From NCBI GenBank assembly GCA_030390025.1, contig CM059432.1:17796001-17860000 (forward strand): a stretch of DNA of 64,000 nucleotides. Reading direction: 5' to 3'. Each line of letters begins with the position of its first letter. Positions within the stretch are counted from its first letter, which is position 1. This DNA comes from Squalus acanthias (taxonomy: Eukaryota). The notes under the pieces are model-generated. The model was not told where the DNA came from, did no database searches, and worked only from the letters and a program-made list of their open reading frames with translations. Below, in pieces: positions 14,561-40,194 of this stretch. A program made the translations under genes and the position numbers.

Positions 14561-14781
14561 GTGCCTAATTGGCAGCAAGTATGTTCAGACAGTGTAGCAC
14601 AGGGAGCAACTAATATTGAGACCGCAGAAATGTCTTTGACACACTCTTACTCTGCCTTTGTCCATATATGGCTTGAAAGTGATATCAAGATAATCAAATC
14701 CATTGAGTATTATCCAATGGGTGTTGAAACCCACCAATATAAGTGATGTGATCAATGATGGGCATCGGTTGTATGCAAAAC

Positions 14782-14830
14782 TACCTTATAAGGTGCTGTC
14801 AGTTTACGTCATAATGCATACCAAATATGG
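14782..14830 (+). promoter_or_regulatory. S1 proximal promoter: two CArG boxes flanking a CRE-like site
   Basis: taCCTTATAAGG 14782-14793, TTACGTCA 14804-14811, taCCAAATATGG 14819-14830. Both boxes fit CC(A/T)6GG exactly. Confidence 0.65.
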
Positions 14831-14972
14831 TTGTTCATACACTACATGGCAGTACTATGTCATTCAACAATCGCGGTCCTAGGCATTAAAAGCTGCCTAC
14901 GGGAGCAAATATTCAATTGAAAATCTCAAATCAGTGAGATAGTATACAAGTCGGTTTGGAAATCAAGGAGTC

Positions 14973-15239
14973 ATGACCAAGTCAAGATATCGCAACAGAC
15001 GCAGTCGTCCACGCAAACGATATGGAAAACGGCTGCGGAAAACAAGGTGTCGAAGAAGAGGAAGGCGGATTAGCCGCAGACCTCGCCATACAACTTACAG
15101 GAGAAGAGTAAGGAAGATTGTGCATCTAAAACGCCGCAGTAGACCGCGAGATGAAATTGATAATTTGAAAGTAAAGAACAACAGACGTCTTAATGAATCG
15201 CTTAAGCAGCATAGAATGCCCATGAGGGTACCTGTCTGA
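14973..15239 (+). CDS. Spermatid-specific basic nuclear (intermediate/transition) protein S1 orthologue, 88 aa, intronless
   Basis: Uninterrupted ORF MTKSRYRNRRSRPRKRYGKR...LNESLKQHRMPMRVPV with 30 Arg + 9 Lys. Near-identical, from memory, to Scyliorhinus canicula spermatid protein S1. Start context gtcATGa, AATAAA at 15282-15287, non-repetitive flanks. Confidence 0.93.
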   Translation: MTKSRYRNRRSRPRKRYGKRLRKTRCRRRGRRISRRPRHTTYRRRVRKIVHLKRRSRPRDEIDNLKVKNNRRLNESLKQHRMPMRVPV

Positions 15240-15259
15240 ATGCCATGTTGCTACTTAAG

Positions 15260-15310
15260 AAAAGATTATCACTTGATATTGAATAAAAAAACAAGTACTT
15301 GAGACTTGGA
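15260..15310 (+). terminator. S1 polyadenylation signal block
   Basis: agattatcacttgatattgAATAAAaaaacaagtacttgagacttgg, homologous to the S2 3' end. Confidence 0.75.
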
Positions 15311-15864
15311 AAACAAATTTGCTGTGTTCACCTTGCATTTTTCTCTTGTGTATATAGGAAGAATAGTGTGCCACTTGTCGTTATTCAGTTAAACTACACT
15401 AATGAACTTTCAGTACCTCTGAAGTTCCCCAAATTATCTCAGAAGGGTACTGATGGTGAAATTTTAATACATTTTCAAAATTTATTTACAAAGGCCCTGT
15501 ACTCTAGGAATAAAGAGATGGGGTTTAGAAATATGGTGGAGGCAGAAAGTTGGGGGTTAAATGGCCATTTCCAGTACTTAACTTGTGTTCTTATGTAAAC
15601 TTAGACTTAGTAGTGAGAATGAGTTGGAGGAAGAAGCCGTATCTTAGAAAATAAATTAACCACAAGCAAGACCTTTCTTGAACATGTGTGAGAACTAATT
15701 GATCCAATATGCTGATCCATTAAGTGATACATCATGGGGGTTGGGGAACTAAAACTTTAGGGAAAGAACAGAGCAAGCCACCCCCCAGGAAACTATAGCA
15801 CATTGCCAAGCAACAGGTTACAGAGTGGCATCATTGGAGAGACAACAGCAACAACTTGCATTTA

Positions 15865-16455
15865 TCTTGTTTATTAATTCTCGGGAGGTGGGCATCGCTA
15901 GCAAAGCCAGTATTTATTGCCCATCCCTAGGTGCCTTTGAGAAGGTGGTAGAAAGCCATTCTCCTTGATTCGCTGCAGTCCATGTGAAGGTGCTCCCACA
16001 GTGCTGTTAGGTAGCGAGTTCCAAGATTTTGACCCAGCGACGATGAAGGACTTGGACATATATTGCCGTATGTGTCCAAGTCGGGATGGTGTGTGACTTG
16101 GAGGGGAACTTGGAGGTGATTGGGGTTCCCATGCACCTGTTGCTCTTGTCCTTCTAGGTGGTAGAGTTTGTGGGTTTGGGAGGTGATGCTGAAGAAGCCT
16201 TGACAAGTTACTATAGATAGTACACCCTGTGGTATAGGGAGTAGATGTTTAGGCTGTAGATGTTTAGGCTAGTGGATGAGGTGCATGGACTGCTTCATTA
16301 TCTGCAAATGGAGCTAAACACTGCAATCATCAGTGAACAACCCCACTTCTTACCGTATGATGGAGGGAAGGTCATTGATGAAGCAGCTCAAGAGAGTTGT
16401 GCCTAGAACGTTGCCCTGAGGAACTCCTGCAGTGGTGTCCTGGGGCTGAGATGTT
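15865..16455 (-). mobile_element. CR1/L2-group LINE fragments (second family)
   Basis: GVPQGNVLG...FINDLPS RT motif and KSWNSLP C-terminus on the minus strand. Tail gggatgggcaataaa. Related pieces at 1-40 and 46465-46990. Confidence 0.75.
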
Positions 16456-16459
16456 TGGC

Positions 16460-17060
16460 CTTTAGCACATTTAACATAGTTAAATGTTCCAAGGCATTTC
16501 ACAGGAGCATAATCAGACAAAAATTGACACTGAGCCAAAGAAAGAGACAGGACAGGTGACCAAAATCTTGGTCAAAGCGATAGGTTTTAAGGAGCATCTT
16601 AAAGGAAGAGAGAGAGGTGGAGAGGTTTAGGGAGGGAATTCCAGAGCTTAGACCATTGAAGGCATTGCCACCAATGGTGGGGTGAAGGAAATGGGGGTTG
16701 CACAAGAGGCCAGAGTTGGAGGAATGCAGAATTCTCAAAGGGTTGTATGGCTGGAGGAGGTTACATAGATAGGGAGAGGCGAGGCCATAGAGGGATTTGA
16801 ACACAAGGATGAGAATTTTGAAATCGAGGCGTTGGTGGATTCGGAGCCAATGCAGATCAGCAAGCGCAAGGGTGATGGGTGAGTGGGACTTGGTGCGAGT
16901 TGGGATATGGACAGAAGAGTTTTGGATGAGCTTAAGTTTATGGAGGGTGTAAGATGGGAGGCTGGCCAGGAGATCATTGGAATAGTCAAGTCTGAAGGTA
17001 GCAAAAGCATGGATGAGGGTTTCAGCAGCAGTTGGGCTGAGGTAGGGGCGGAGACGGGTG
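16460..17060 (-). mobile_element. L2 LINE 3' portion
   Basis: AAETLIHAFATFRLDYSN...LHWL in ORF 16499-17233. Confidence 0.9.
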
Positions 17061-17089
17061 CTATTACAGTGCAGTGCGGAGACAGGTGC

Positions 17090-17382
17090 TTTTACTGAGA
17101 GAGTGCTGCACTGTCGAAGGTGCCGTATTTCGGATGAGACATTAAGCCCGTCTGCTCTCTCAGGTGGACGTAAAAGATCCCATGACACTATTTCAAAGGA
17201 GAGCAGGGGAGTTATCCCTGATTTCCTGACCAATATTTATAGATCAATCAACATTATCATATCAGCTTATCTGGTCATTATCACATTGCTGTTTTGTGGG
17301 ACCATGTGCAAATTAGCTGCCGTGTTTCCTATATTACAACAGTGACTAAACTTCAAAAGTACTTCATTGGCTGTAAAGCGCT
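17090..17382 (+). mobile_element. SacSINE1-like SINE, partial
   Basis: Reverse complement of the core of 3352-3812. Confidence 0.8.
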
Positions 17383-17384
17383 TT

Positions 17385-18380
17385 GAGTCATAGAATGGTT
17401 ACAGCACAGAAGGAGGCCATTCGTCCCGTCGAGCCCGTGCCGGCTCTCTGCAAGAGCATTTCAGCTAGTCCCACTCCCCCGCCCTTTCCCTGGATCCCTG
17501 CAAATTTTTCCTTCAGGTATTTATCCAATTCCCTTTTGAAAGCCACATTTGAGTCTGCCTCCACCACCCTTTCAGGCAGTGCATTCCAGATCCTAACCAC
17601 TCGCTGCGTAAAAAAGTTTTTCCTCATGTCGCCTTTGGTTCTTTTGCCAATCACCTGAAATCTGTGTCCTCTGGTTCTCGACCATTGCACCAATGGGAAC
17701 AGTTTCTCTCTATCTACTCTGTCTAGACCCATCATGATTTTGAACACCTCTATCAAATCTCCTCTCAACCTTCTCTGCTCGAAGGAGAACAACTCCAGCT
17801 TCTCTAGTCTATCCACGTAACTGAAGTCCCTCATCCCTGGAACCATTCTCGTAAATCTTATCTGTACCCTCTCTAAGGCCTTCACATCCTTCCTAAAGTG
17901 TGGTGCCGAGATTTGAACACAGTACTCCAGTTGAGGCCGAACCAGTATTTTATAAAGTTTCATCATAACTTCCTTGCTTTTGTAACTCTATGCCTCTATT
18001 TATGAAGCCCAGGATCCCGTATGCTTTTTTAACCACTTTCTCAACCTGCCCTGCCACCTTCAACGATTTGTGCACATATACCCCCAGGTCTCTCTGTTCA
18101 TGCACTCCTTTGGATTTGTACCCTTTAGTTTATATTGCCTCTCCTCGTTCTTCCTACCAAAATGTATCACTTCGCACTTTTCTGCGTTAAATTTCATCTG
18201 CCACATGTCAGCCCATTCCACCAGCCTGTCTATGTCCTCTTGAAGTCTATCACTATCCTCCTCACTGTTCACTATACTTCCAAGCTTTGTGTCATCTGCA
18301 AATTTTGAAATTGTGCCCTGTACTTCCAAGTCCAAGTCATTAATATATATCAAGAAAAGCAGTGATCCTAGTACCGACCC
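17385..18380 (-). mobile_element. CR1 LINE 3' 1 kb
   Basis: FLIYINDL, KFADDTK, RPQLEYC and NFFTQRVVRIWNALP in ORFs 18060-18455 and 17388-17966. Confidence 0.92.
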
Positions 18381-19444
18381 CGAAACTAACAACTGCTGAT
18401 ATTGAACCTGGGACCCTAGACACTGCTGATATTCATTCATTTCCTTCACATTCATTCAATCTTTCAAGCCACTCCACTTGGGATGTCCTGAGGAAATATA
18501 AGTCTTTTTTGATACAGAGGTGAAAGTGGACGGTCTTTGTGATGGAGAGGATATGGGGTTGGAAGGTCAGCTCAGGGTCAAATAGGGTGCCAAGGTTGCG
18601 AACAGTCTGGTTCAGCCCGAGACCGTGGCCAAGGAGGGGAATGGAATCTGTGGCTAGGGAACAGAGTTTGTGATGGGGGCCCCAGACAAATGGCTTGTCA
18701 GGTTATCTTGGAATAAGTCACATTGAGCCAACATTGAGGAAACCATGTACTGAGCATGCTCATAAACATTTGCATTGTGACCTCATGTGGGAAACATTGG
18801 CAAGGCCACTTTTATTGTCCTTTTTTTCTCACCTGAGTGGTTTACTCGGAACTTCAGAAGACATTAAGGAGTCAACCACAGGTGTAGGCCAGATTTTGTA
18901 GGTTCCCTTTGTCCCTGAACAACATAATGCGTCAGTTTTTATGACAAACTGACAGCTATCATGGGCATGACATTACTGAATTTAGTTTCACAATTTGATG
19001 AGATTTAACATCACGACTTCTGAGTTACTAGAACAGGTCCATACCCACTACACTACCATCAGTTAATGATGATGGGTGGCTACACATTGACTTTCTGTTC
19101 CCACCAGTAGAAAGCTTTAGGACCTGTATTATAGAAACTAGTTGATTCGTCCCCCACTTTGAAAGGTGCTGTGCAACTGCCCAGCTTCTAAAACTAGGCT
19201 CTGTAGCATTTATAAGAAAGGATAAGTACATTTTGAAGCAGTTTTAATCATTTTTGTTAGTGTTTACTGTGTTTTACTCATTTTCCATTTTCAGCTCCTC
19301 TTATGCAGCTTGGCTGACTCCAATATTTAGAATCGTATAATCATAGAATAGTACAGTACAGAAGGAGGCCATTCAGCCCATCGGGTTTGCACCAATGGAT
19401 TGCTCTTTCGAAGAGCAATCCAGTTAGTCCCACTCCCCCGCTCT

Positions 19445-19810
19445 GAGTGTCAGCATACATGTGGAACCTAACACCCAGCTCTACCTCAGAACCACCTCTC
19501 TCGACCCCTCCACTGTCAGACTGCTTGTCCGACATCCAGCGCTGGATGGGCAGAAATTTCCTCCATCTAAATATTGGGAAGACCGAAGCCAGTGTCTTCG
19601 GTCCCCCGCCACAAACTCCGTTCCCTCGCCACCGACGCCATCCCTCTCCCTGGCCACTCTGTCCGAGGCTGAACCAGACTGTTCGCAACCTTGGTGTCGT
19701 ATTTGATCCTGAGATGAGCTTCCGACCACACATCCGAGCCATCACTATGACCTCCTATTCCCATCTCCCGACTCTGCCGCCGCACCCCCCCCCCCCCCGC
19801 CTCAGCTCAT
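19445..19810 (+). mobile_element. L2 RT fragment
   Basis: CLSDIQRWMGRNFLHLNIGKTE...VRNLGVVFD. Confidence 0.85.
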
Positions 19811-20584
19811 ACGCCAGTTGTAGGACCCCAATTGCAGTTTCTAGGTACAAATGGACAGAGTGAAGTGAAAAGTTAATGAAATAAGTTTGTTTCACTGTTT
19901 TTTGGGGGGGAATTTTACTGCAATTTTCTGGGAGCTGCACTGTTGGTCAAGGGGAAGTGTGGTCGGAAGCCTTAAGGAGGCCTTGGCAATTAATTGGTAC
20001 TTCCATCCCTCTCCGCAGTATGGGTGTATTATTTGCAATCCCTTTACACTGGGCATATTTGGAGGAAGAGAAGCAGAAGAAAGAAGAGGCAACTTAGGAC
20101 GACTGAGAGGCCAGACATGATTAGGAGGTGGAAGGAATCTACTTGGCCATTGATTTATCGGCACTGCAGCACTTTTCTGGGCCGCACTGAAGATCCGTGG
20201 AGGCTATGGTTCCCTAAACGAGTGGTCTAGTAGTCGGCTGCAGAAAGACAACACTCATTCACCTTAAATTTGTTTGCCGCGGGGTCTTTCTGATGTCCGC
20301 AATATCGTTCAGTCTGTTGTACATAGCTGCCTCAAACAGGTGACTCATACATTGCTTAAAAGAGCTAACCAATCAAGTTCCCCTTGGAGTAACAGGTTTG
20401 AGCCCTGGGCATTTTCAGACTTCCCCAAAGTTCGGGGTAGTCAATATCACTCACGTAGCCTTTCAGAATCTTCCTCAAGTATGTGCTCCCGATATGAACA
20501 TCAATGTCTAAAATTGGCCACTAATTCCTTCCACGACACCATTCCCCTTGTCTATGCATTATAGACAGGCACCTCTGCAATTAA

Positions 20585-20767
20585 CACAATAGCAAAATAC
20601 TGTGGATGCTGGAAATCTGAAATAACAACAGAAAATGCTAGAAGCACTCAGCAGGCCAGGCAGCATCCGTGGAGAGATGAAGGGTCACAGACCTGAAATG
20701 TTAACTCTGTTTCTCTCTCCACGGATGCTGCCTGACCTGCTGAGTGCATCCAGCATTTTCTGTTGTT
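20585..20767. mobile_element. Penelope (family 2) inverted pLTR remnant
   Basis: Inverted arms of the gatgctgcctgacctgctgag repeat. Flanking duplication acctctgcaattaa 20571-20584 and acctatgcaattaa 20768-20781. Confidence 0.8.
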
Positions 20768-20848
20768 ACCTATGCAATTAAACGCTTCAAGCTTACAGAG
20801 TGATGCGTGCAGATAAGTTTTCTTGGTAAAGTTCTGTGTCTAATCACA

Positions 20849-21240
20849 GGGTATGATAGTGTAGTGGGTATGTTACTGGGCTACCAATCCAGTTGTCCTG
20901 GACTGGACTAATAATCCACAGAATGTGAGTTCAAATCGCCACCATGGTAGTTTGAGAATTTGAATTCTGTTTAAGAAATGTGGAAATAAAAAGGTAGTAT
21001 CAGTAAAAAGTGACCACGAAGCTTGGCGTGAAAACTCAACTGGTTGACTAATGTCCTTTAGGAAAGGAAGCCTGCTATCCTCATCTGGTCTGGCCTATAA
21101 GTGACTCCAGTCACACACCAACATGGTTGATTCTTAACTGCCCTCTTACGTGGCCTAGCAGTCACTCTGTTGTATCACCATCTTCTACTAGGGATGGGCA
21201 ATAAATGCCAGCCTTGCCAGTGATGCCCATATCTCAAGAA
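20849..21240 (+). mobile_element. tRNA-derived SINE with CR1/L2-group tail
   Basis: A-box-like tagtgtagtggg, B-box gagttcaaatc, tail gggatgggcaataaatgccagcc. Minus-strand relatives near 18800-19060 and 39880-40180. Confidence 0.7.
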
Positions 21241-21319
21241 GGTTGTTTGATGTGCCGGACTATCTATTCTGGTGCCTCATCTCAGTGTAATTCCATAGAC
21301 AGGAGACTAGGAGAAGGGT

Positions 21320-21411
21320 CTCCACGGATGCTGCCTGACCTGCTGAGTGCTTCCCTGTGCATTTTCTGTTATTATTTCAGATTTCCAGCATCCGCAGTAT
21401 TTTGTTATTGT
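21320..21411 (+). mobile_element. Penelope (family 2) pLTR tail fragment
   Basis: Flanked by a perfect 14-bp duplication actaggagaagggt at 21306-21319 and 21412-21425. Confidence 0.85.
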
Positions 21412-21429
21412 ACTAGGAGAAGGGTGCCA

Positions 21430-23030
21430 GCTGTGTATCTGGGCGAGGTTCCTGGGATTCAGATGATACTCTGGGGGTACTTGTCAACTGCCATCTTGTC
21501 CAAGCTCAGGTTGGATTGTGGGAGAGAATGTCGGAACATTTGGGCAGTGAGGTCCACTGCCTCACTGCCCCGACTGGAAATTTCCCTCTCGCTGCCACTG
21601 CTGGGACCACCACTAGCTCCTCATTCCCGACCCACTGCATGAAAATATCGATGGGCAGGCAGGGCTTGGTCCACCACAGAACCACAATTACCATCGGCAT
21701 GCAGAAGGTGGCCCTGGGAAGTGGCGGTGGAGGGAGAGGCCTGTAGTGACAGGGGAATGGGCAGGTCACCAGAATCGCTGAGCAATTAACTCATCCCTTG
21801 AGGTGGCCTTCCTTCTTATCCTGCTTTCTCATCTTCATCCTGGCTTTCCTCGTCTGATGAGCACTGCTGCTGTTACTGTGCCTCCTCAAAATGCAGGCCT
21901 CTCTGTATGGCAGGGTTACGCAGGGTGCAGCAACACCACTGTGACGCGGGAGACACTTTGTGACGCATATTGTAGGGAGCCCCCAGGCCTGTCCAGACAC
22001 CTGAACCTCTGTTGCAGAAGCACTATAGTGTGCCTAGGAATCATGCTGGTAGATTTGATTATATCTGTGTTGCTCAGGTGTGCTGGGTTTGCGGAGGGGG
22101 TGTCATGACCTATGTGGGTAGGGGGTATCCAGCAGCTATCCTGTCACATTAGTGGAAGGGTTGAGTGTTGGGGTGGGGGGGGGGGGCGGGGGTGCGGGAT
22201 AGGGATGGTTGAGTGTTGCACATTGTGACAGCTGCCTGGGTATCTTGTACAACTTGCATGATCTTGTTTCTGTGATCAGAGACTAGCCGGACATTAATGG
22301 AGTGGCAGCCCTTCCTATTCACGAATGCTGCTAGCTGGTGTCATGGTGCCCTGATGTCAACACATTCTGGACGTGAGGGAAGCCAGCCACTGCTGTAAAT
22401 CCCGAGCTCTCTCCTGTTGACGTTGAGGTCGATGGGGAAGGTGATGTACCGGTTAGCCCTGCAGCTGTGTACTGCATGTGGGACATGGACCCTGCAGCAG
22501 GGGCTGGAAAGAACCAGTGGCAAAGAAGATAAAGGCTGTGGTGACTTCGTGGCCACTGGCAAAGCATGGTCCCCTGGCACAGCAGGTCCTGTTGCAGGAG
22601 GCTGCAGAGGTCTGCGACAGCCTGCCTGGAGAAGCGCAGCCTTTCTGAGGCATTGATCTTCAGATAGCTCGAAGCAAGTGACTTGGCCTGTGCACCCTGT
22701 GTGCTTGTCTAGGGCCTCCTGCCAGCAGCCCCCTCACCCACTGTCTTCTAATAGGCTCAGCTGCTGAGCGTGCTTGTTGCTGAGGCTGCCACGCCTGCTC
22801 CTCTTCCTTCCACCAACAGCTCCTCCATCCAAATTAAACTGGCGACAATGGCACCCACAATAAGCAGATAGAGGTTACTGAGGTTAAGTAAGGCAAAGCA
22901 AGTGAGAAAGAAGCGATCCGGAAGCTGGAAACTCTCCTGGGAATCCGAATAGCACAATGGCACACAGATCCTCTGATCCAATTACCTGCAGGTGAGTGCC
23001 CCTTTAAATACTGAGAGACCAATCCCACTA
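21430..23030 (-). mobile_element. Degenerate PIF/Harbinger element
   Basis: Minus strand 22500-22650 reads RLRFSRQAVADLCSLLQQDL...LPVA...FFATGSFQ (HARBI1-like N-terminus) across frameshifts. Confidence 0.65.
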
Positions 23031-23099
23031 GGTTTTACTGGTGGGTTGTTCACTGCACCCTGACACCATTCCTCTTAAATTCAACCCTAGGAACTTCCC

Positions 23100-23380
23100 T
23101 TAAAAGGTGGCCGTCCAAAGTCCAGGGTGGACACGGCCCATGGGTGGTGCTCGCTCTGGCTTGCCCGCCTCTCTTCTGTGGCTTTGTCTGTGACCGGGTG
23201 GTCCTGGAGAAGGAGCAGGCGGTGTCCGCCGGTACGCTCGAGGCCTTCTGCGAGCGGTGACTGGAATGCTTGGTCAACAGAGGACATAATATTATGATTC
23301 AATTTGTTAAGTTTCCTCTGTCATTTTTTTTAATGATTTGGGTTTTATTAGTTGTGTCCCTCTAAAAAGGGGGCACTTTT
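23100..23380 (+). mobile_element. Tx1-clade LINE 3' end
   Basis: PLFCGFVCDRVVLEKEQAVSAGTLEAFCER resembles Tx1 ORF2 C-termini as I recall them. Confidence 0.55.
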
Positions 23381-23827
23381 GTTAAGATTCTTTTGGGACA
23401 ACCCAGTGTCTCCTTAAGGGTTTCAATTAAAAGATTAGAGCTGTTAGTTTCGTGCTGATAAAAATAGCAACCTCACCTCCTCTTTGACCTATTCCATCCT
23501 TCCTGAATCCCTTGTAGCCTTTTAGGTGAATTACTGTCCCATCACTTTCATCTAGCCAAGCAACTTGAACCCAGCTCTCCTCAGCTGTAGGTGGTTGGTG
23601 GTTGCTGTTGCTAGTGGTTGGGAGTGTGTGGGTTGTAGGAGTATTGACTAGACCATGGTCAAGCAAAGCAAAGCAAGAGGAGGAACTTCCCTTAAGATAG
23701 TTGCTCGAAGTCAACAACTTTAATTTGAATACTGGATGTTCAATGAGGAACTGAGAAAGAGAAAATGTGCTCCACAAGGGAGGAAGCCCCAATAACCCAT
23801 GAGTGCTAAAATCACAAGTCAGTTATG

Positions 23828-24538
23828 GGGCCAAAAATTCGGCCCTTGCCGGGTGAGTACGCACTGTGTACTCACCCGTAAGGCCTCCTGAAGTGCCGGT
23901 TTCCTGCATGCATTGCGCATGCGCGGCGGTAGAGGCTGCGCGCACGCAGCAAACTTAGGGTTTTTTTCAGGTTTCTCTGGGAGGGTAAGTATTGAAGAAC
24001 CTGCGCTTTTAAAAAGGAGGCACAGGACCTGTTTTCAACAAGGTAAGTGGTTAATTAATTATAATTTAAAAAAAATGTCAACAGGTTTATCTTTTTTAGA
24101 TACTTTAAAGAAAGGTAAGTTTATTTTTAGCACTGTTAAAAAGTATTTTAATTTTTTCAAAAATTTAAATTTTTGTTTAAAGTAGTTAATTTATTTAACT
24201 TATAGTTATTTTATAAATGTGATGGTTTTTAAAAAAAATTATTTTAAGTTTAGCTGTTCTTTTGGGGCCGATTTCAATTCATAGATTTGACAGGTCTTCC
24301 TGTCAAATCTATGAATGAAAGATGGTCTGCTGCCATTGGCTCTCCATGGCCCACGTGATCCCAGGGGACGCATCGCACTAACTACGCCCCTGGGACACGC
24401 AAGCACTGCGCGCCGGCACTTGGAGCAGGCCCAGGAGCTGAAGTTCCCGTGAGCCCAGAGGTCAACGGCAGGCGCGGTAGGTAAGTGCGTGCGCGATCCT
24501 TACCCCCGCGGCAAGCCGGAGAGGTGAATTTCAGGGCC
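23828..24538. mobile_element. Harbinger-type MITE
   Basis: TIRs gggccaaaaattc and gaatttcagggcc; 3-bp TSD ATG at 23825-23827 and 24539-24541. Confidence 0.75.
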
Positions 24539-26416: not shown

Positions 26417-26442
26417 TTGGCAATTGTGGCAAGTTGTGTCAA

Positions 26443-29422: not shown

Positions 29423-30468
29423 GGCCGCGATTTTACCGGTGCTCAGAGGGCGGGTTTGGAGGCGGGTCAGAGGTTAAATTCGTTTTGATTGACGGCAGGT
29501 CCCGAACCCGCTGTCAACCCGCCTCCAAACAACTTTCCCAAGTGTCGGGTCCCCGATTTGCGAATGGAACCGACACCTAGCGGTGGGAAACGGATTAAAG
29601 GCAATTATCTGCCTATTACCAGGTACTTGTGAGCAGTTTTTAGGGCCTTTTGCGATTTTCCAGCTTTTGCAACAGGTTTCACGACGTCCGGACAACACGC
29701 CAGGTAAGTGTGGCGTGTTGTGAGTCTGGTCTGATGTTTGTGAAAAGATGACAGCTGCAGAAGTGGTGTCAAGGATGCAATGTTGCACAAGGTGAGTTTC
29801 AGAGCAAGAAAATGTTGGTTACTGCATTTTTAATACATATACAGATTTTTTTAGCTTACAAGTTTCTAAATCCAACTGTATGTCCAGTGCCACCTCATTG
29901 GGAGAACCTCTCTCACCAGTGACGGATCGCTTCTGTCATCTCACCTGCACCTGCATCTATTCCAGCAACATCGGAGCCAATGAAACAATCAGACCTAGTG
30001 AGATGGCGAAGTAATAAAGTAGATAGAGAGGGTTGGGTGGAGGTGCAAGGTAAGTTGATGTCCTGGGGAGGTCTCTTCCACCCTTAGAAGGGAAGAGAAC
30101 CTCCCTGCGTACTGTGACTCCCTTCATAAGCATATGGAGGGAGTCATTGGAGAGCCTGGGTGCAAGAGTTCACCTTTGTGCATTGATTGTCAGTGTTTGC
30201 AGCACCTCAATGCTGTCAAACACTGAAAAATCAACTGTCAAAATAAAATTGTGCATGGTCCCTTTAAGGAAACCGGCAGATGACGCGTCATCAAATGATG
30301 TCATCAGACCGGCTTCCTGTTAATTGGCCGGCAAACCCGCAGGGCGGGCTCAACAAGGCCAATCAAGGGAAAATCCCGATTACAGAGCGGAGGCAGCTGG
30401 GGGCGGGACCGGAACCCGGAAACCACCTGACCCGCCCCCATCCCGACACGGAGGAGAAAATCGTGGCC
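29423..30468. mobile_element. Harbinger-type non-autonomous DNA transposon
   Basis: TIRs ggccgcgatttt and aaaatcgtggcc; TSD GAG at 29420-29422 and 30469-30471; GC-rich subterminal repeats. Confidence 0.75.
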
Positions 30469-32851
30469 GAGAACTCCAGTCTCTGCTTGCGGGGGGGAGG
30501 TGTCTGGAGTGGGCTTGAACCCATAAATATCCGACTCAGAAACAGTAATGCTACTATTGACCCAATGCCTATTCCTTCTCCGACAACTCTGCATTCCTCC
30601 AACTCTGGCCTCATGCATTTCCTCATTCCTTTCGTCCCACCAGTGCCCACCATTGCCTTCAGCCATCTAGAGATGGATAGGCTCTGGAATTCCCTCCCTG
30701 AACCTCTCTGACTCTCCACCACCCTCTCCTCCTTAAAACCCACTTATTTGACCACGCTATTAGTTACCCTTCCTAACATCTCCTCAATTTGTCTCGCCAT
30801 CGATTTTTGTCTGATTACATCTTAGCAAAGTGTCTGGGGACATTTTTCTATGTGTTATATAAATGTAAGTTGCTGTTGTAGCAATTATCTAAAAATCCTT
30901 ACTCCCGATAATTGTGGACAACAGCTTAACCCATTTGAAATGGATGTGTTAATGACAAGAGAAGACCGTGTGAATTTAAATTCATCCCCTATTATTCGAG
31001 GTTGTAGTGCTGCAATTGCCTATGCATCCAGCAGAAGGAGCACGATCACGGAGTTAATACCATTCATTTAATAAGGCCCTGGCTGAGCTGTAAGTGATCA
31101 TTCTAACCACGGCACACCCATACTCCCTGGCCCACCGATGACCACTCCCACGCCTGCTCACTCTCCCTCATTCATCTGCCCTTGTCCCAGCTTGCGCTGC
31201 TCCCAGTCCACCTATTGTCTTCTTTGGGAGATCGGCAATTTGTTTTTAAAGTGCATGCAGCACTATTTAAAGAGACTGTTTAAAAACAAATTGCCGGTTT
31301 CCCAGTGAAAACAGTAAATGGAGGGCCACCAGGAGGGGCACAGGGCAGGTGAAAGCAAACAGGACTGGGACCAAAAGCATGTGGGGCAGCTTATAAGTTT
31401 GAGGCTTTCCTCTGAGGCTGGTATGTCACAGGGGCATAAGACTGTACAAGGGATGGATAAGGCAGATTGGAAGAGGGGTCATGGGAGAATAGGAAGGATT
31501 ATGGGTCTGGAAGCAATAAGGGGCAGGTTAGGGTGAAGAGCAGTAGAAATGGGGATTGGGCAGTGGAGAGCAGGTGAAAGGGGGTGCCTGGAGGGGTACG
31601 ATGGATGAAAGTTAACAGGGAAGTGAGAGGAAGGGTTAGGGGTTGAGCCAAATGGGCTCTTAAAAAGTAGAGGGGCAGTGGGCAGCCGAAGTGAGAGGGG
31701 ACACGATGGAAGCCAGGGAGAGTAGGGATGGAAGTGGGTGTGGAGAGTATGGGAAATGAGCTACTGAGAGATATAGGCCATAATTCTCTGAACTTGCAAC
31801 TACAAAATGTGGTCTGTAGCCTTCAGCAGCTCACTTCCACACCATGCCACTTCACCCATAACCCAACAGAGCCAGAAGCAAAAAAAAGAGTTAGGGAAAG
31901 TGAAGTAGAACAGAAAAGTGTGCGAGAGAGAGAGAGACAGACAGACAGAGAATGTGAGCAAGCCCAGGCCGAGACCCAGTCGCCACTCCAAAGCTGGCCT
32001 GTGGCTCTAGCTAGACCTATTCTCCCCACCCACAATCCTAAAACAGCCCTGCAGCCCTCACCACATCCCTTCTAACGAGCAAGCCACCACTCACAACCAC
32101 AGAGGCACCCTTTGACCTGGCCCAATCCTTCCCCCACCAAACCATTCCATCCAAAAGGACATAAGAGGCAAAGCGAAAGAGAGTTGTAGAACAGGAAGAA
32201 ACGAGAGCGTATCAGGCTTAGGCAGGGAGGTATCATTGGTAAAAGGCATGAAATTATGCAGCATACACCACCACCTTCTGCACAAGGATGCTCAGGACAA
32301 CCCACTCATAACTCCTTCCATGACGTGGACCTGCATGCTCTACATTTCTGTCTTCACAAACCCTCGGAGTGCATCTTCACATACAGGGGTTTGCAAATTT
32401 GATGCAGCCCTTGTTCTCAGCCTTCTGTGTTTGTAGGTGAAGGCAGCACATAACAGGCGGCAAATGTCTACAACTGGAGGGAGGCCAGTAATCTTACGTG
32501 GTCTGACTCCATTTGAGGTGTTTGCTCTCCAAGCGCAATGCTGTTACTTGGAGGAGGAGGCTGGAGTTAGGGAAGTAGCTTCAGCTCAGTGTTAGTCTAA
32601 CATTTATTCTTCCTCGACGCTACAAACAATTTACTCACACAAGTACTGGTTCGCAAGCTTGCTCCATGTCAGCTGTTTGGGAAAGACTACTATCCAATAA
32701 GTTGTTCTGAAGATGTGCTTCCAACACTTTTCTCTTTCTGTCTCTGCAGGCATGGGAGAGGAAGCTGTTGCAAGGTACTCACGACAGGTACTCACTCATC
32801 ACCTCACACTGCATCTCACTCTGCAAGATTTAGCTGACTAGTTTGAGGGCA

Positions 32852-33016
32852 AAAATGAGAAGTCGCACAACACCAGGTTATAGTCCAACAGTTTTATTTA
32901 AAATTACGAGCTTTCGGAGCTGTTGCCCCTTCGTCAGGTAAAGGTACAATGAGGGAATCTATTACACAGTATATATCTCATTTTTGTCCACCCCAGTCCA
33001 ACACCGGCATCTCCGC
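32852..33016. mobile_element. Miniature Penelope insertion (same family as 8970-10052) with hammerhead on minus strand 32904-32941
   Basis: Inverted pLTR piece plus the forward tail gtccaccccagtccaacaccggcatctccgc. 12-bp TSD agtttgagggca at 32840-32851 and 33017-33028. Confidence 0.88.
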
Positions 33017-34239
33017 AGTTTGAGGGCAGCATACAGGGCGATGCACAGAGCACAAGAGAGCAAGTGGGGAAGGGGCAGGAAGCAGATGGCCAGAGAGCGA
33101 GGCTGCCTCCATCCACAGCTGATGAGGCCAGGGGCCAGCTTTAAAAAGAAGGATGCTCTTGGAGTATGAGACGTTGTTGAAATCACTGGGGAATGTGCAT
33201 GACCGCTAGTGTGGACAATTCTCACAACTTGCATGTGTTGGGTGCTCATGCATGGTACTGAAATCTTGTAGGCAACCTAGGAATGAGCTGCAGCCCCTCA
33301 GACAGGCCTTCAATTGTAATGTCACCTTCTCATTGAGAAATCTTCTCACTGAGGCGAGAGATTGCTATGGGTTTGTCGCTGCCTGTTGATCAGTGGGCAC
33401 AGTGGCATGGAGGCTTCCATCAAGGCCTGGGCAGAGCTGGCAATGGGTGATGTTGCTGTCCATCTCAATGGCAACACCTCCACCCAAGTCTCAACCATTC
33501 CCACCCAATGACTTCACGGGAGCCAGAAAGCAGGCAGGGCCAGGTTGCTCCCGCAGCATCGGAACGGCAGCAGGCTGAAACGGACCCATCTGGAAGCCAT
33601 GGTCATAGAAACAATTGACAGGCCACCTGGATGCTAGGAACCTCTCACAGACACTCAGCTGGCAGCCACATCAAAGTTCAAACCATAGGGACACCACTGG
33701 GAAGAAATACTGCAATAAGTAATCAAACCCCAACCTACACCTACTCATAGGAAGGAGAAACACTGCCATACAGGCATTAGGTAGAGAAACATGCAGCACT
33801 CTCCTGTTACAGCTCCTCCAAATGGTGCCTCTTTAAAAGACAATGTTGTGCCGAATGAAACAGCCTATAATGATTCTGCAAGCTTTGGCTGGATTGTACT
33901 GCATGAAGCCCCCCTGATTTGTCAAGGCACCAGGAGTGTTGCTAAAGCGTGGCAATGGTGTTCTTTTTCTCGTGATGACCCTGGTGGAGGCTTCGGCATC
34001 ACATCTGTGGTTGGCTGATGTCAGGGAGGCTGCGGAGGCACCATGAGCTAAGGCAGCAACATGCCGAGGATCAGCAAAGATGATGGTATGACGGACTGAC
34101 ATCAAATGGAAGCACCTTGAGTGCGGTGTGGTAATTTGACACTACTTTGCTTGATGACGTACAGATGATCACACACAACTGCACAATTACAGAGTAGAAG
34201 ACCTTCATAGAAGAGGCACTCCAATTATCAGGAGCACAA

Positions 34240-34500
34240 AGAAGAACATAAGAAATAGGAGCAGGAGTAGGCCATTTGACTCTTCGAGCCTGCTCCACCA
34301 TTCAATGGATCATAGCTGATCTTCTACCTCAACTCCACCTTCCTGCAATATCCCCATATCCCTTGCGTCCCTTATTATCCAAATATACTCAATGACTGAG
34401 CCTCCATAGCCCTTCCAGAATTCCAAAGATTCACAACCCTTTGAGTGAAGAAATTTCTCCTCATCTCAGTCCTAAATGGTCAACCCCTTATTCTGAGACT
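34240..34500 (-). mobile_element. CR1 3' end
   Basis: aagaacataagaaataggagcaggagtaggcc tail, also present at 8080 and 45757. Confidence 0.85.
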
Positions 34501-36274
34501 GTCGACCCCTTATTCTGACACTGAGAATAAGTGTGCCATCTATTACCCCCTGGACTTTGGGGGATTCCGTCGTTCTGAAGAACTCTGGGGCTTGGGCCTG
34601 TTGGTCCAATTGGCAAACGACGTATCAGTCATTTGCTGAATGCACCAATGCACTGATGACTAACTTATCTTGGAAGTTTTGCCAGTGGCTACCTGAAAAC
34701 ACGGTTGTTACATTGACTGTCTTTGGCAGTGCCGTGTCAGCCCTGGAGTGTGTACCTGCAGATCCTCCGGCAGAAGGTCACAGAGCATCTGGACTACCTC
34801 CTGCTTAAGCCTGTGAAGCCTTTGCTTCTCTGTTAGGTCCAGAGGAATCCTGCAGAGCCAATAGATTTTTCTGTTTGGATAAAGGTGATTACAACAGTGA
34901 CTACACTTCAAAAGTACTTCGTTGGCTCTAAAGCACTTTGGGATGTCCTGAAGTCATGAAAGGCGCTATATAAATGCAAGTTCTTTCTTTTTATAAAGGT
35001 GGGTAAGTGACCTTCTCCTCCAATGATGTTTCAGCACCCTACAAGCCAAGGGTGCTTCCTGTACATCTCTTCTCTTCCTCCAAATAATACATGTAACAGT
35101 GTATTTCAAATGGGACCTCCATTCTGTCACGGGGTGGGGAGTGGCCTTCAGCAACTCTTCAGCTGGCCAACATGTTGAGCACAGTGAAACCCCTCGATAA
35201 CCTTTTACAAAGCAAAGCAATTTGACGTTACTTGATCCCCATTTAAATGGAATTTAAATGCCTTCTTGAGGCACAACACCAGACCTGTAACTGGCAGCAG
35301 GGCTGGCACAATCAGGGCTGCGACCCGTCATAACAGGTTTCCCTTCATTTTTCCTCAGCTTTGCACCCCTGAAAATAATCGTACTTGGAGCCCACAGAAA
35401 AGGAAAATCAGTACCTATATATAACAGAATGTTAGTTAGCTATTATTCGACTTGTGTGAGGTATGGCATACTAAACACTTACGAGGACTATTTATCAGCG
35501 TGATAACTGGTAATTGGAGCAGTAAGGGAAGGTATATTGGTATGATGAGGTCAAGGATGTTGGCCAGCTAATGTCGCAGAAGAACAAGGAGACCATGGTC
35601 TAGCACAGAGTTAGATAAATGCTGGTGTGGAACAGCGTGCACGGAAAGCGCCAGGGCACTCTAGTGCAGGAACACTTACGCAAGGTTTGGCTGAGTGAAC
35701 TAAATTTGCACAATGCAAGCAATACTTCCATCAGTAGCAACCTCAGATGTTAGAACATTTAAGATTCTTTAGAACCCAGGACCATCAGTTGAAATTTAAG
35801 GGGGGAAAAAATGCTGGTCTAACACCCCAATGAAAATGTTCAAAGTTAGAGACTCACAGACCGCAGGCTACAATCAGAAAAGAAGCTGCTTCAAAATCAA
35901 TATAAACCAGAAGTCTTTAAACTGAAGAGAATATAAACCAAGATGATTCCACCTTCTGACTTAGCAAACCTGAGTCAGTTCGTCAGAGACTCAGAAATGT
36001 TGTTGGAAATCATGTACAATAGTGCTTCTATGCTATTACATCATATAGCAAGTCTATCCTCTTCCAGAAATGGATGGGAAATTGGTTGACGATACAAGTG
36101 AATTGCTAGAGGATCTGCAAAGGAAACTGTATCAAAACAGTAATTCTAATGAGTATTGAGAATCTAATGCCGTGAGAAGGAAGGATACACGATGATGTGG
36201 TAAGGTTAGAAGGCTATACACAAAATGAGCCCAGTGCAAGAAAAACTATAATACAAAAAGAAAATAAACAAAAA

Positions 36275-38150
36275 GGAAATACTGCAGATGCTGGAAATCT
36301 GAAATAAAAACAGAAAATGCTGGAGAAACTCAGCAGGTCAGGCAGCATCTGTGAAGAGAGAAACAGAGTTAACGTTTCAGGTCGATGACCTTTCGTCAGA
36401 ACTGGAGAAAAGCAGGAAATAGAACAAGTGTAGGGGCTGGGAAAGGGGGGAGGGGATGAAAGAACAAAAGGGAATGTCTGTGATAGGATAGAAGGCTGGA
36501 GAGGTTAAGAGACATTGAGATATTCAAGGCAAAAGAAGATGGTAATGGGACAGGTTAAGAAACAAAGGATGGCTCTAGATGAAGTGTAAATTGCGCTGGC
36601 AGAATGAAAGACAGCTGCCATGTGGGAGAGAAGAAAAGAAAACGCAAACAAAAGGTGTGGATAAAAAAATATATATATGATAGGGGCCGAGGTTATGATC
36701 TGAAATTGTTGAACTCTATGTTGAGTCCAGAAGGCTGTAAAGTGCCTAATCGAAAGATGAGGTGCTGTTCCTCGAGCTTACGTTGAGCTTCAGTGGAACA
36801 ATGCAAGAGGCCGAGGACGGTGAGGTCTGAGTGGGAGTGGAGCGGAGAATTAAAGTGACAGGCGACCGGAAGCTCGGGGTCCCCCTTACGGACTGAATGG
36901 AGGTGTTCCGCAAAGTGGTCACCCAATCTGTGTTTGGTCTCCCCAATGTAGAGGAGACCGCATCATGAGCAGCGAATACAGTATACTAAGTTGCAAGAAG
37001 TACAAGTAAATTGCTGTTTCACCTGGAAGGGGTGTTTGGGGCCCTGGACAGTGGGAAGGGGGGGGAGGGATAAGGGCATGTGTTGCATCTCCTGCACTTG
37101 CACAGGAAGGTGCCAGGCGAAGGGGAAGTGGTGTTGGGGGTGATAGAGGAGAGGACCAGGGTGTCACGGAGGGAGCGGTCCCTTTGGAATGCTGAAAGGG
37201 GAGGTGAGGGGAAGATGTGTTTGGTGGTGGGATCACGCTGGAGGTGGCGGAAATGGCGGAGGATGATCTGTTGAATGTGGAGGCTGGTGAGGTGAAAGGT
37301 GAGGACAAGGGGAACCCTATCGTGGTTCCGGGAGGGAGGGGCAGGGGTGAGGGCAGAAGTGCGGGAGATAGAACGGACACGGTCAAGGGCCATGTCAACC
37401 ACAGTAGAGGGGAATCCTCGGTTGAGGAAAAAGGAAGACATGTCGGAAGCACTGGTATGGAAGGTGGCATCGTCGGAGCAGATGCGGCGGAGACGGAGAA
37501 ACTGGGAGAAGGGAATAGAGTCCTTACAGGAGGCGGGGTGGGAGGAAGTGTAGTCCAGGTAGCTGTGCGAGTCAGTGGGCTGGTAGTGAATGTTTGTCAA
37601 TAACCTATCCCCAGAGATGGAGATGGAGAAGTCGAGGAAGGGAAGGGAAGAGTCAGAGATGGACCATGTGAAGGTGAGGGAAGGGTGGAAATTGGAAGCA
37701 AAGTGGATGAAATTATCTAGTTCAGGGCAAGAGCAGGAAACAGCACCGATACAGTCATCAATGTACCGGAAAAAGAGGTGAGGGAGGGGACCTGAGTAGG
37801 ACTGGAACAAAGAGTGTTCCACATATCCCACGAAAAGGCAGGCATAGCTAGGACCCATGCAGGTTCCCATAGCAACACCTTTGATTTGGAGGAAGTGAGC
37901 GGAGTCAAAGGAGAAGTTGTTCAATGTGAGAACAAGTTCAGCCAGGCGGAGGAGGGTGGTGGTGGATGGGGACTGGTCGGGCCTCTGTTCAAGGAAGAAG
38001 CGGAGCGCCCTCAGGCCATGCTGGTGGGGGATGGAGGTGTAGAGGGATTGGACGTCCATAGTGAAAAGGAGGCGGTTGGGGCCAGGAAACTGGAAACTGT
38101 TAAAGTGGCGTCGGAAGAGTCGCGGATGTAGGTGGGAAGAGACTGGACCT
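36275..38150 (-). mobile_element. Penelope-like retroelement (family 2): RT, GIY-YIG endonuclease and pLTR, 5'-truncated
   Basis: ORF 37019-38059 has DVQSLYT, GVAMG and RYIDD; ORF 36693-36926 has RKLEEQHLIFRLGTLQPSGLN; pLTR at 36275-36405. Confidence 0.93.
36367..36403 (-). ncRNA. Minimal hammerhead ribozyme motif
   Basis: agtt-CTGACGA-a-aggtc(atc)gacct-GAAA-cg-TT-aact on the minus strand; palindromic AACGTT. Confidence 0.8.
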
Positions 38151-38767
38151 ATGTTTACTGTAGGGTAGGGAGGGACATATTTTCATTTTTTACTTTGTTT
38201 TATGAGCTCAAACAAATTCAGGATTTCAAACCAAGTTATTTACATTAGGTCGGCCATGGTTTGTGCATCATAGATACAATGACAAAAAGAAAGAGGTTAT
38301 TACCAGCAAGGACTTAATGAACATAAATATGAGGGAGGGAGGAGGGAATATTTATTATTTTAGAAATGGCATTAGATCTCAGATTTATTGGATTAGAGAA
38401 GACGGGGAGCAAGATTGGATGGATCAAAGTGAACATGGTTAGAGAAAGCAAGGAAGTAAGACTAGATGGATCAGAGTCAATACAGATAAATAATGTAAGA
38501 GGAGCATGATTAGATGGATTAAAGTCAACACGGTTAGAGAGGGCGAGGGAGTCACCACAATGCGAGCAGCTGAATTATAACAGATTTGTCATTAAAAATC
38601 TCTTAAATCTAATGAAGTGACAAAGAATTAGAATACGATTGAATGTATTTTTTGATAATCAGTTTTCTATATCGTCAGCAATGTGCAATACACAAAGGAA
38701 TACGCGTGATAGAACGATACGTTGTAAAGCAGTGATCTCATACCATAGGAAATACATCATAATATAC

Positions 38768-38870
38768 ATGTATATCAGTACCTTAAAAGGCAAGAAAATG
38801 TCCCAAAATGATTATGACTATTGTGCGCATCACACCCTATGTAATACACCCCTCAAAACATTTATAAAAA
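38768..38870 (+). promoter_or_regulatory. Third-paralogue promoter: CArG box and TATA box
   Basis: atgtatatcagtaCCTTAAAAGGcaagaaaatgtcccaaaa aligns with S2 atgtacatcagtaCCTTAAAAGGtaatgcagtgtcacaaaa. TTTATAAAAA at 38861-38870. Confidence 0.65.
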
Positions 38871-38915
38871 TGAATCCTCATCATTTTAAAGCAGGGCTTG
38901 AACACAAACGGAAGC

Positions 38916-39083
38916 ATGACTAAGTCAAAAACCTACACAACCTATAGTAGCTGCCGTCAGTGGCACAAAAAACGGGGCAAGAAAGCAAAGCCTAACAGAC
39001 ACGTGTCCCCGAAAAATGTCCAACGTAGGTCCAAAACAAAGATGAAATCTAACAAAAAGCATAAGAAGAAAGGATGGAAATAG
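38916..39083 (+). CDS. Third S1/S2 paralogue: 55-aa Lys-rich basic protein (truncated gene or pseudogene)
   Basis: ATG at 38916 (the ORF track starts at an upstream TTG). MTKSKTYTTYSSCRQWHKKRGKKAKPNRHVSPKNVQRRSKTKMKSNKKHKKKGWK, 17 Lys + 5 Arg. MTKS start as in S1, promoter block shared with S2, 3' region homologous to S1/S2, ATTAAA 39242-39247. Homology is well supported; function is not. Confidence 0.65.
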   Translation: MTKSKTYTTYSSCRQWHKKRGKKAKPNRHVSPKNVQRRSKTKMKSNKKHKKKGWK

Positions 39084-39194
39084 ACTGTTGCCAATCACTA
39101 GGCTCCAGAAGAAAATTTTAAAAGTGGAACCAGGATCACAGAATTAATGAACTACGCAAATAACATCTTACTACCATTGAAGAGATCTATCTGA
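39084..39194 (+). pseudogene. Vestigial S1/S2 C-terminal coding segment after the stop of the third paralogue
   Basis: Reading through TAG 39081 and TAG 39099 gives APEENFKSGTRITELMNYANNILLPLKRSI then TGA 39192-39194, in frame with the ATG (92 codons). DNA ttaatgaa...ccattgaagagatctatcTGAatgctatg aligns with S1 ttaatgaa...cccatgagggtacctgtcTGAatgccatg. Confidence 0.75.
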
Positions 39195-40194
39195 ATGCTA
39201 TGGGATTATGTTTGTTGCCTTATGGATACAATTTATTATGAATTAAAACAACTAATACTTGAGAACAAAATGTATTAACACTGTGTGCTTCTCTTCCTGT
39301 GTACATGGATTAGGGCAGTGACAATAAAACGTGATTTACAATACTTATTAGACCTTCTTCTACAGAAGAGGTTTACTGTAATTATTACCTGTTACTATCT
39401 ATTCGATAGACCAGTTGGTCTAATGTCAGTTGTGGGCAAACTCTTGCAAGTCATAATTAGCGAGAATGTAGCATTGAATAATCGAGGGCAGGCAACGTGG
39501 ATTTTTTTTTATAGGCACGTCACATTTGATTTTCCTGGGAGAAGTGACTGATTGTATAGATAAAGGGATTGCAGTAGTTGTGGTGTATATAGATTTTTCA
39601 GAAGGTGTTCGATAAGGTAGGCAGGAGGCTAATTGCACAAGTTCAGACATACTGGGAGAGGTAAGAGTTGAATGGATGCTGAGTTTTTGAAGGACTGTTC
39701 GGCCGTAGGAGGCTACAGAGCGATAGGGAGGGTCAAGGGACTTAAACACAAGGATTTAAATTTGAGGCGTTGGGAGCCAATGTAGGTGATGGGTGAACAG
39801 AATTTGATGCGGTATAAGATGTAGGCAGCAGAGTTTTGGATGCACTGAAGTTTATGGAGGATGTAGGACAGCAAGGCCAGCATTTACTGCCTAATCCCTA
39901 ATCCCATAAGCAGGTGGTGCTTTTTTGAATACATACATGGCTTACTGTGAGTCTGGAGTCACATATCGGCCAGACCGGCAGATTTCCTTCCCTAAAGGAC
40001 GTTCGTGTTTTTACAACAATCCAGTAGTTTCACAATCACTGATACTAGCTTTTTATGCCAGATTTTATTTAATTGAATTTAAATTCCCAAGCTGCCATAG
40101 TGGGATTTGAACTCATGTCTCTGGATCATTAGTCTAGGCCTCTGGATTACTAGTCCAATGACGTAACCACTATGCTACCGTACCCACATAACCA

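Follow-up and report, generated by a model that had tools for sequence, protein, structure and literature searches.

Among the closest known systems are those of dogfish and of mammals. In dogfish spermatids, the proteins S1 and S2 bind DNA transiently as histones leave, and are then replaced by cysteine-containing protamines that become locked by disulphides. These disulphide-linked scylliorhinine protamines are the major component of mature sperm nuclei. In mammals, the PRM1-PRM2-PRM3-TNP2 genes form a cluster of this order and in the same orientation, each member containing one intron. In cattle, TNP2 and PRM1-3 are located with SOCS1 and RMI2 (PMC9019162). As reviewed for mammals, the histones of spermatids give way to protamines and to small basic intermediate proteins, and the action of transition proteins may overlap with that of protamines instead of strictly preceding it (PMC9258737). 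Here I describe a locus in the 3.7-Gb genome of the shark Squalus acanthias, covering a window of 64,000 nucleotides (nt), the whole stretch of DNA first examined (contig CM059432.1, hereafter C8, positions 17796001-17860000). It belongs to an array of what are very probably five co-oriented paralogues, encoding S1, S2, two protamines and a further basic protein, nested antisense in an intron of TRPN1 and acting in spermiogenesis.

A preliminary description of the window had reported a cluster of three intronless genes, for S1, S2 and a third paralogue (hereafter g3). The three + strand open reading frames (ORFs), at 14973, 26165 and 38916, were all found again, with the spacing, the lysine plus arginine (K+R) content of 40-44% and the M(T/A)KS starts given for them. 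The count of three was however incomplete. A DNA profile made from the three window genes and run over 200 kb returned two matches, both upstream and on the + strand (E 1.1e-15 and 1.9e-6), each of which contains an ORF rich in arginine and cysteine. The array therefore comprises five genes, listed here in order (positions are those of the window, unless C8 is specified):

C8:17785351-17785506, + strand, upstream of the window: protamine Z1 gene, 51 amino acids, with 18 R, 7 K and 4 C
C8:17790496-17790639, + strand, upstream of the window: Z2-like protamine gene, 47 amino acids, with 16 R, 6 K and 4 C
14973..15239, + strand: S1 gene, 88 amino acids, K+R 44%, start MTKS, intronless
26165..26416, + strand: S2 gene, 83 amino acids, K+R 40%, start MAKS, intronless
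38916..39083, + strand: g3, the third paralogue, a lysine-rich ORF of protamine size, 55 amino acids, K+R 40%, with 17 K, 5 R and 1 C, start MTKS

Within the window, the ATG codons of S1 and S2 are 11,192 nt apart and those of S2 and g3 12,751 nt apart; along the entire array the steps are 5.1, 20.5, 11.2 and 12.8 kb, for a total of 49.7 kb. A census of ATG ORFs of at least 45 amino acids, with a threshold of 39.5% K+R, retrieved only these five in the 504 kb of DNA examined, which is more than expected by chance. Genome-wide searches with the Z1, Z2-like and S2 proteins gave one match each, all at the array, and the search with S1 found only S1 and S2; these four genes are single-copy in the assembly. 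No sixth member was found in C8:17,656,001-18,050,000, where the profile was scanned in separate 10-kb pieces and the two piece junctions within the host intron were re-examined for ORFs, while distant copies elsewhere in the genome are excluded by single-protein, DNA and motif searches only. Nor does the host intron contain a candidate ORF for Z3 or S4, the other two dogfish protamines.

Three of the five genes can be assigned to known proteins, and a fourth tentatively. The S1 ORF matches the Scyliorhinus canicula protein S1 (P13275) over its full length, with 82 of 87 residues identical (94%, E 2.5e-40), and the S2 ORF similarly matches S. canicula S2 (P11020; 60 of 80 residues, 75%, full length, E 6.8e-22, one match among three candidates), confirming the identity proposed earlier for both. 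The names of these two entries read "spermatid-specific". Kinship between S1 and S2 is evident from 38 of 83 identical residues and from a score that none of 1000 shuffles reached. The Z1 ORF corresponds to Protamine-Z1 (P08433; 40 of 51 residues, 78%, E 3.5e-11, one match among four candidates). I take the 47-residue protein encoded next to it to be protamine Z2, although no Z2 entry was returned by the searches. The scylliorhinine traits, namely a length of about 50 residues, richness in arginine and several cysteines, are found in Z1 and the Z2-like protein but not in g3. The earlier view of the region as a transition-protein locus is therefore right for S1 and S2 and incomplete for the rest, since Z1 and the Z2-like gene are part of the array and g3 is not of the S type. 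Because S1, S2 and Z1 each match their protein as a single ORF, these genes are intronless, as had been stated for S1 and S2; for g3 the same is presumed.

All six candidates in the S1 search matched, the other five being uncharacterised proteins of the chimaera Callorhinchus milii (A0A4W3I4A2, A0A4W3H8T8, A0A4W3K3G7, A0A4W3IS42 and A0A4W3K235) with 66-75% global identity. This set of at least five proteins is apparently a separate expansion. With 94% identity to catshark and 66-75% to chimaera, S1 has changed far less than S2 (75%) or Z1 (78%). Sperm basic proteins evolve fast, and such conservation seems unusual for one of them. In the protein collections searched, the sequence cluster of S1 contains one unnamed assembly product besides its Swiss-Prot entry, that of S2 contains nothing but the Swiss-Prot entry, and none of the three window proteins has an exact copy among 15 billion proteins. 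Pfam gave no family above cut-off for any of the five proteins, and its protamine, transition-protein and linker-histone families matched none of them at E up to 1. The ESM Atlas gave scores of 0.80 or less only, for g3 and S1.

The five genes are tied together mostly by what lies on either side of their coding regions. Their promoters have in common two boxes of the CCTTA-x-AAGG type, near -200 and -140; a half site resembling the cyclic AMP response element (CRE), TACGTCA, lies between the boxes in Z1 and S1, and TATA-like elements are present in the Z2-like gene, S2 and g3. In the window, the putative promoter modules and the 3' untranslated regions (UTRs) are as follows:

14783..14850, + strand: S1 promoter module, with a palindromic CCTTATAAGG box, the CRE-like half site TACGTCA and a degenerate second box
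15240..15330, + strand: S1 3' UTR, with AATAAA at 15282, a conserved ACAAGTAC..GAGACTTG motif and TGTGT downstream
25961..26093, + strand: S2 promoter module, with CCTTA(T/A)AAGG boxes at 25961 and 26018 and a TATA-like element at 26086
26417..26520, + strand: S2 3' UTR, with AATAAA at 26464 and the ACAAGTAC..GAGACTTG motif as in S1
38719..38870, + strand: g3 promoter module, with a degenerate first box, a second box at 38780 and a TATA element at ~38862
39195..39290, + strand: g3 distal 3' UTR, with ATTAAA at 39242

Pairwise DNA similarity was evaluated against dinucleotide shuffles (n = 500). For eight of the ten promoter pairs the score was reached by at most 3 of the 500, while Z2-S1 is marginal (10/500) and S1-g3 is not significant (284/500). 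The second promoter box of g3 resembles that of S2 (41 nt, 83%), and no shuffle reached the g3-S2 promoter match. The promoter homology reported earlier for the window genes consequently stands for S1-S2 and S2-g3 (0/500) and fails for S1-g3 in the pairwise comparison, whereas that of the 3' ends is upheld for all three pairs (0/500 each). In the distal 3' UTR, S1 and S2 are similar to the Z2-like gene, to g3 and to each other (0/500 in each of six tests), and more weakly to Z1 (5 and 121 of 500). The motif following the poly(A) signal occurs three times in the 3.7 Gb, in the Z2-like gene, S1 and S2, with no control matches. No conserved RNA structure was predicted in the common 3' UTR.

Leave-one-out profiles, in which each gene was held out in turn and searched for with nhmmer in 464 kb, recovered every member (Z1 3e-9, by its promoter only; Z2-like 5.9e-12; S1 5.8e-28; S2 2.1e-29; g3 5.8e-15), and the sole other match at E up to 0.5 was the palindromic S2 promoter box on the reverse strand (E 0.41). 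Even a profile of S1 and S2 alone finds the Z2-like gene (2.9e-12), g3 (5.5e-10) and Z1 (3.4e-6). The tandem duplication suggested in the preliminary description is therefore supported both by the pairwise flank tests and by these profiles, which show the common ancestry of all five genes through their promoter and 3' sequence. N-terminal coding regions can be aligned as DNA between S1 and S2 only.

The array lies within a single intron of a gene on the opposite strand, of which the window contains the following parts:

1..48238, - strand: window part of the TRPN1 host intron, GT..AG, phase 0; the intron contains all five genes in antisense
48239..48337, - strand: TRPN1 (nompC) exon, 33 codons, one ankyrin repeat, best NompC stretch 159-193

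The full host intron measures 68,019 nt, from C8:17844238 down to 17776220, and reaches 19,781 nt past the window start. It lies between the exons of the second and third of the ankyrin repeats identified, and is bounded, in phase 0 on both sides, by the GT donor at the end of the window exon and by an AG behind which the following exon starts, at C8:17776219. A profile made from the ankyrin repeats identified 29 of them in order on the minus strand, over 200 kb and on both sides of the array; three of these exons are weak (E 2.3, 0.12 and 0.31) and were accepted on position and sequence, and a further 13 or so weak matches, from either strand, were discounted as chance. NompC is expected to have about 29 ankyrin repeats. 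The repeats are followed by a 501-codon open segment with NompC as its best match (E 1e-131), the next being TRPC4 (2.7e-29), and the best NompC stretches are collinear, with 159-193, 295-332 and 693-758 in ankyrin exons and 1141-1612 in the channel. For the short ankyrin exons NompC is not the top whole-protein match, and a fourth exon gave no NompC match at E up to 0.01. Past the 68-kb intron, the next three exons total ~106 codons, equivalent to the residues between NompC 193 and ~298, and since they fill this interval there is no room for a further exon inside the intron. With its 29 ankyrin repeats and a channel domain closest to NompC, the host is assigned to TRPN1/nompC, an assignment based on the repeats, the two splice sites of the host intron and the channel segment. 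The gene is apparently intact at C8 ~17.68-17.89 Mb, with most of the channel domain in the 501-codon segment.

This address differs from that of the mammalian cluster, the neighbours of which were located on another scaffold:

C3802:51936-52613, - strand: SOCS1, neighbour of RMI2
C3802:106564: RMI2 match, the only one in the genome

SOCS1 (E 2.2e-71) and RMI2 are 55 kb apart on this scaffold. The array profile has no match in 70 kb of the SOCS1-RMI2 region, and there is no basic ATG ORF of at least 25 amino acids between the two genes, on a scaffold of 156 kb, with 501 N in the interval and with intron-split genes also limiting the ORF test. Because SOCS1 and RMI2 are found on a different scaffold and enclose no gene of this kind, the shark array looks like a parallel cluster, and not like the mammalian cluster by position. 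The analogy with PRM/TNP2 made in the preliminary description therefore holds for the design, with transition-type and protamine genes in one co-oriented tandem array occupying a small domain, but not for the location, which is a TRPN1 intron and not the vicinity of SOCS1 and RMI2. The two clusters further differ in that Pfam reveals no sequence family in common for the five shark proteins, and in that the mammalian members contain an intron whereas the genes for S1, S2 and Z1 have none. By analogy, the shark array may nonetheless work like the mammalian cluster. The SOCS1-RMI2 interval contains repeat-like ORF fragments, and a tandem repeat open in several frames lies near RMI2 on the same scaffold (L011:9242-10000). 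TNP1-type synteny, which is next to IGFBP genes, was also considered and is unsupported, the nearest IGFBP-domain match being 10 Mb away on C8.

An alignment of the five genes brings a further feature to light. The first 90-110 nt of the Z1, Z2-like and g3 3' UTRs align with the last ~30 codons of S1 and S2, and the aligned segments end at a TGA matching the S1/S2 stop. In the window this segment is:

39084..39194, + strand: g3 proximal 3' UTR, aligning with the S1/S2 C-terminal coding sequence, with a TGA in frame 111 nt (37 codons) after the TAG

The Z1 UTR retains the residues L-N-E, and these are 16 codons away from the old stop, exactly as they are in S1. The resemblance was evaluated in an anchored test, comprising the 66 nt before the S1/S2 stop, with the anchor itself excluded and 2000 shuffles. 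Between long and short genes, the score was reached by 4 shuffles for S2-Z1, 19 for S1-g3, 26 for S2-g3 and 27 for S1-Z1; among the short genes the numbers were 0 for Z1-g3, 103 for Z2-g3 and 229 for Z1-Z2. With moderate confidence, the UTR/C-terminus resemblance would be a real collinear homology for Z1 and g3, and it is weak for the Z2-like gene. There is about an even chance that Z1, the Z2-like gene and g3 derive from a long S1-like ancestor, in which earlier stops removed the less basic C-terminus of ~30 residues and left a degenerate remnant in the 3' UTR, with g3 as the clearest case. The resemblance itself leaves the direction of change unfixed. Truncation is favoured because the long form is found in the chimaera, and because of the likeness of the g3 promoter to that of S2; the long form is regarded as old because the five C. 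milii S1-like proteins carry the C-terminal segment. In a wider reading, Z1 and Z2 would be transition proteins cut short by premature stops, g3 would be a later recurrence of such an event that still shows the old stop in frame, and the complete kit that leads in cartilaginous fishes from histones through transition proteins to protamines would come from one TRPN1-intron gene, independently of the amniote SOCS1-RMI2 cluster. This is put forward tentatively, its chances being a little below even.

The third gene needs separate consideration. It had been described as a paralogue of S1 and S2, which its DNA bears out (leave-one-out search) and its protein does not: BLASTP gives an E of 3.1, and 479 and 161 of 1000 shuffles reach the score against S1 and S2, respectively. 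No convincing relative of the g3 protein was found by exact look-up, among 1.84 billion representatives or in the ESM Atlas. Two long tandem-repeat proteins among the representatives matched over short stretches only, and were rejected. The g3 segment that matches the S1/S2 C-terminus comes after the stop codon, and because g3 is without their C-terminal segment and may be decaying, it is not classified, from its sequence, as a transition protein of the S1/S2 type.

Two runs from related organisms (X4 and X5) cover the g3 locus, in 30 of 30 bins and at ~97% identity; the differences listed for them leave out 15 substitution rows and 4 indel rows. In X4, two adjacent changes on one contig (depth 22.5) convert g3 codon 20 from CGG to TAG, and the normal stop is lost. 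In X5 the ORF stays open among the differences listed, with 5 in 168 nt (2 silent, 2 missense codons), compared to 16 in 495 nt upstream and 16 in a 742-nt contig that includes the ORF, so that among these listed differences g3 is no better conserved than its flanks. Both runs lack 2 nt at 39120, in the g3 3' UTR. Low-depth contigs were also seen in two runs guessed to be RNA, at 38876-39209 in X1 (depth 2.3, no differences) and at 39131-39330 and 39501-39650 in X2, four of the six listed runs having been compared. As these contigs are unstranded and lie inside the TRPN1 intron, and as the X2 pieces extend beyond the predicted poly(A) site, they could stem from DNA or from pre-mRNA of the host gene. 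No RNA data set is listed as containing g3, which counts neither for nor against its expression. Because no protein relative was found and a related organism has a nonsense codon, g3 may be decaying, and the odds are about even that it is a fast-evolving protamine-like gene or a dying copy.

A number of observations weigh against an array of five working paralogues with truncated protamines. The N-terminal coding DNA of Z1, the Z2-like gene and g3 is not significantly similar to that of S1, S2 or each other (43-423 of 500 shuffles), nor are their proteins (47-479 of 1000), which is as expected of fast-changing basic tracts but means that the ancestry of the short coding regions stays hypothetical. 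The Z1 3' UTR was missed by the leave-one-out search, the name Z2 for the 47-residue protein is unconfirmed, and g3 has a stop at codon 20 in run X4. In the anchored test, S2-Z2 is marginal (56/2000) and S1-Z2 is not significant (1065/2000); the anchor was picked by eye, and the nine anchored comparisons that involve a short gene are uncorrected. Without the anchor, local alignments between the C-terminal codons of S1/S2 and the short-gene UTRs are weak (18-167 of 500), the identity of Z1 to S1 by codon position (8, 10 and 7 of 17) shows little codon signature, and the gene tree is unrooted and poorly resolved (support 50-92).

Given this lack of significant coding similarity besides S1-S2, it could be proposed that the coding regions had separate origins, with only the flanks in common through gene conversion or through new ORFs captured between duplicated flanks. 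This is very unlikely: the homology is collinear on both sides of the ORF, with matching distances of the promoter boxes, single profile matches run from the promoter to the poly(A) site in the Z2-like gene and g3, and recent conversion is disfavoured because the flanks, at 56% mean column identity, are too diverged for it. The opposite direction of change, from a short protamine ancestor to S1 and S2 by stop-codon loss and extension into the 3' UTR, would leave the same sequence resemblance, and the faint codon-position signature in the Z1 UTR and the unrooted tree are compatible with it, as is run X4, in which the g3 stop codon has been lost. It is nevertheless unlikely, as the chimaera has five long-form copies and no Z-type protein was found there (it could be unannotated), the g3 promoter is closest to that of S2, and the old stop is still in frame in g3. 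Moreover, the stop codons of the short genes lie 92, 112 and 111 nt ahead of the common anchor and each in a different frame, as would result from later indels or from separate events.

True orthology with the amniote PRM/TNP2 cluster, with relocation in one lineage, would account for the shared design of co-oriented transition-type and protamine genes side by side, and the small size of the SOCS1-RMI2 scaffold and the N in the interval leave some room for this. I consider it quite unlikely, in view of the interval that is free of profile matches and basic ORFs, the lack of any Pfam protamine or transition-protein family in the five proteins, and the intron of the mammalian members. Much more finely balanced is the proposal that g3 is a pseudogene or a neutrally drifting copy, and the working locus one of four genes, to which I assign slightly less than an even chance. 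In its favour are the nonsense codon and lost stop of run X4, ORF differences no fewer than those of the flanks in X5, the missing protein relatives, the weaker ATTAAA polyadenylation signal and the degenerate first promoter box. On the other hand, the ORF is open in this assembly and, among the differences listed, in X5, no frameshift in it is found among the indels listed for either run, its K+R content (a level found in only five ORFs in 504 kb) comes without a single acidic residue, and the TATA element, the second box and the 3' motif are retained.

With five co-oriented paralogues as the preferred reading, a working scheme can be proposed. Tandem duplication of one small gene within the 68-kb TRPN1 intron, on the opposite strand, would have produced five intronless paralogues. 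The inherited twin-box/CRE-like promoter module would turn the array on after meiosis, in haploid spermatids, and the common 3' UTR motif may govern mRNA storage and the order or timing of translation. S1 and S2, with their less basic tail, would bind DNA reversibly, while the tail-less, cysteine-containing Z proteins would bind finally and cross-link.

S1 and S2 agree with their S. canicula counterparts in being basic over the N-terminal two thirds and in carrying the conserved C-terminal segment; those are protein entries, however, whereas here the gene, promoter and locus are available. For the scylliorhinines Z1 (P08433, CAA29099) and Z2, the likeness consists of the Z1 match and of a second gene of the size and composition of Z2, and the difference is that here they are linked to S1/S2 with common flanks. 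C. milii has S1-type proteins with the same C-terminal segment, in five copies as opposed to one here, and no S2- or Z-type protein was found for it in protein searches. For the histone H1-derived protamine-like (PL) proteins, domain loss has been proposed to turn a longer basic protein into a short arginine-rich protamine, and the shortening proposed here is similar. In contrast to these, none of the five shark proteins matches the linker-histone winged helix (Pfam), and the loss here would be by stop codon, with a remnant in the 3' UTR.

The DNA between the genes had been described as mostly transposon debris. Repeat cover, by BLAST against the DNA examined, is indeed at least 54% and at least 41% in the two spacers, but this is about the same as in the rest of the window (40-44%). 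ORF fragments resembling retrotransposon reverse transcriptase/endonuclease, judged by eye, are found at 6943-8826, 17388-17966 and 37019-38059, all on the - strand. The window also contains an inverted repeat whose 456-nt arms (8970-9425 and 9561-10016) are 100% identical and 135 nt apart, and which is either a very young duplication or an assembly artefact, as well as several direct and inverted copies of one ~300-460 nt element within 3.5 kb at 57680-61243.

S1, S2 and Z1 are already known as proteins, and four of the five appear to be long known if the 47-residue protein is Z2; because of this, the advance is one of genome organisation and evolution, and not of new function. As the preliminary description had supposed, no prior genomic description was found in the literature searched, with supplements and most subscription journals outside the search. 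The same search yielded no description of the linkage of S and Z genes or of the nesting in TRPN1, though earlier remarks on shared UTRs may exist, and the accessible parts of PMC13251019, PMC11607694, PMC8812575, PMC4257556 and PMC3750513 contain nothing on the locus. Genes of the array could already be named in the gene lists that accompany shark genomes. Overall, the arrangement is real, apparently undescribed, and belongs to a known kind of system, and the route from transition protein to protamine is moderately supported.

Whether vertebrate protamines had a single origin or several is hard to test, their coding sequences being short, repetitive and fast-changing. The locus supplies gene models that the protein collections searched had been missing, together with two markers independent of coding sequence: conserved flanks linking shark protamines to intermediate proteins, and a fixed address in a TRPN1 intron, which can be checked in shark, ray, chimaera, bony fish and amphibian genomes. 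Truncation and an independent kit, if true, would provide evidence at the level of genes for more than one origin of vertebrate protamines.

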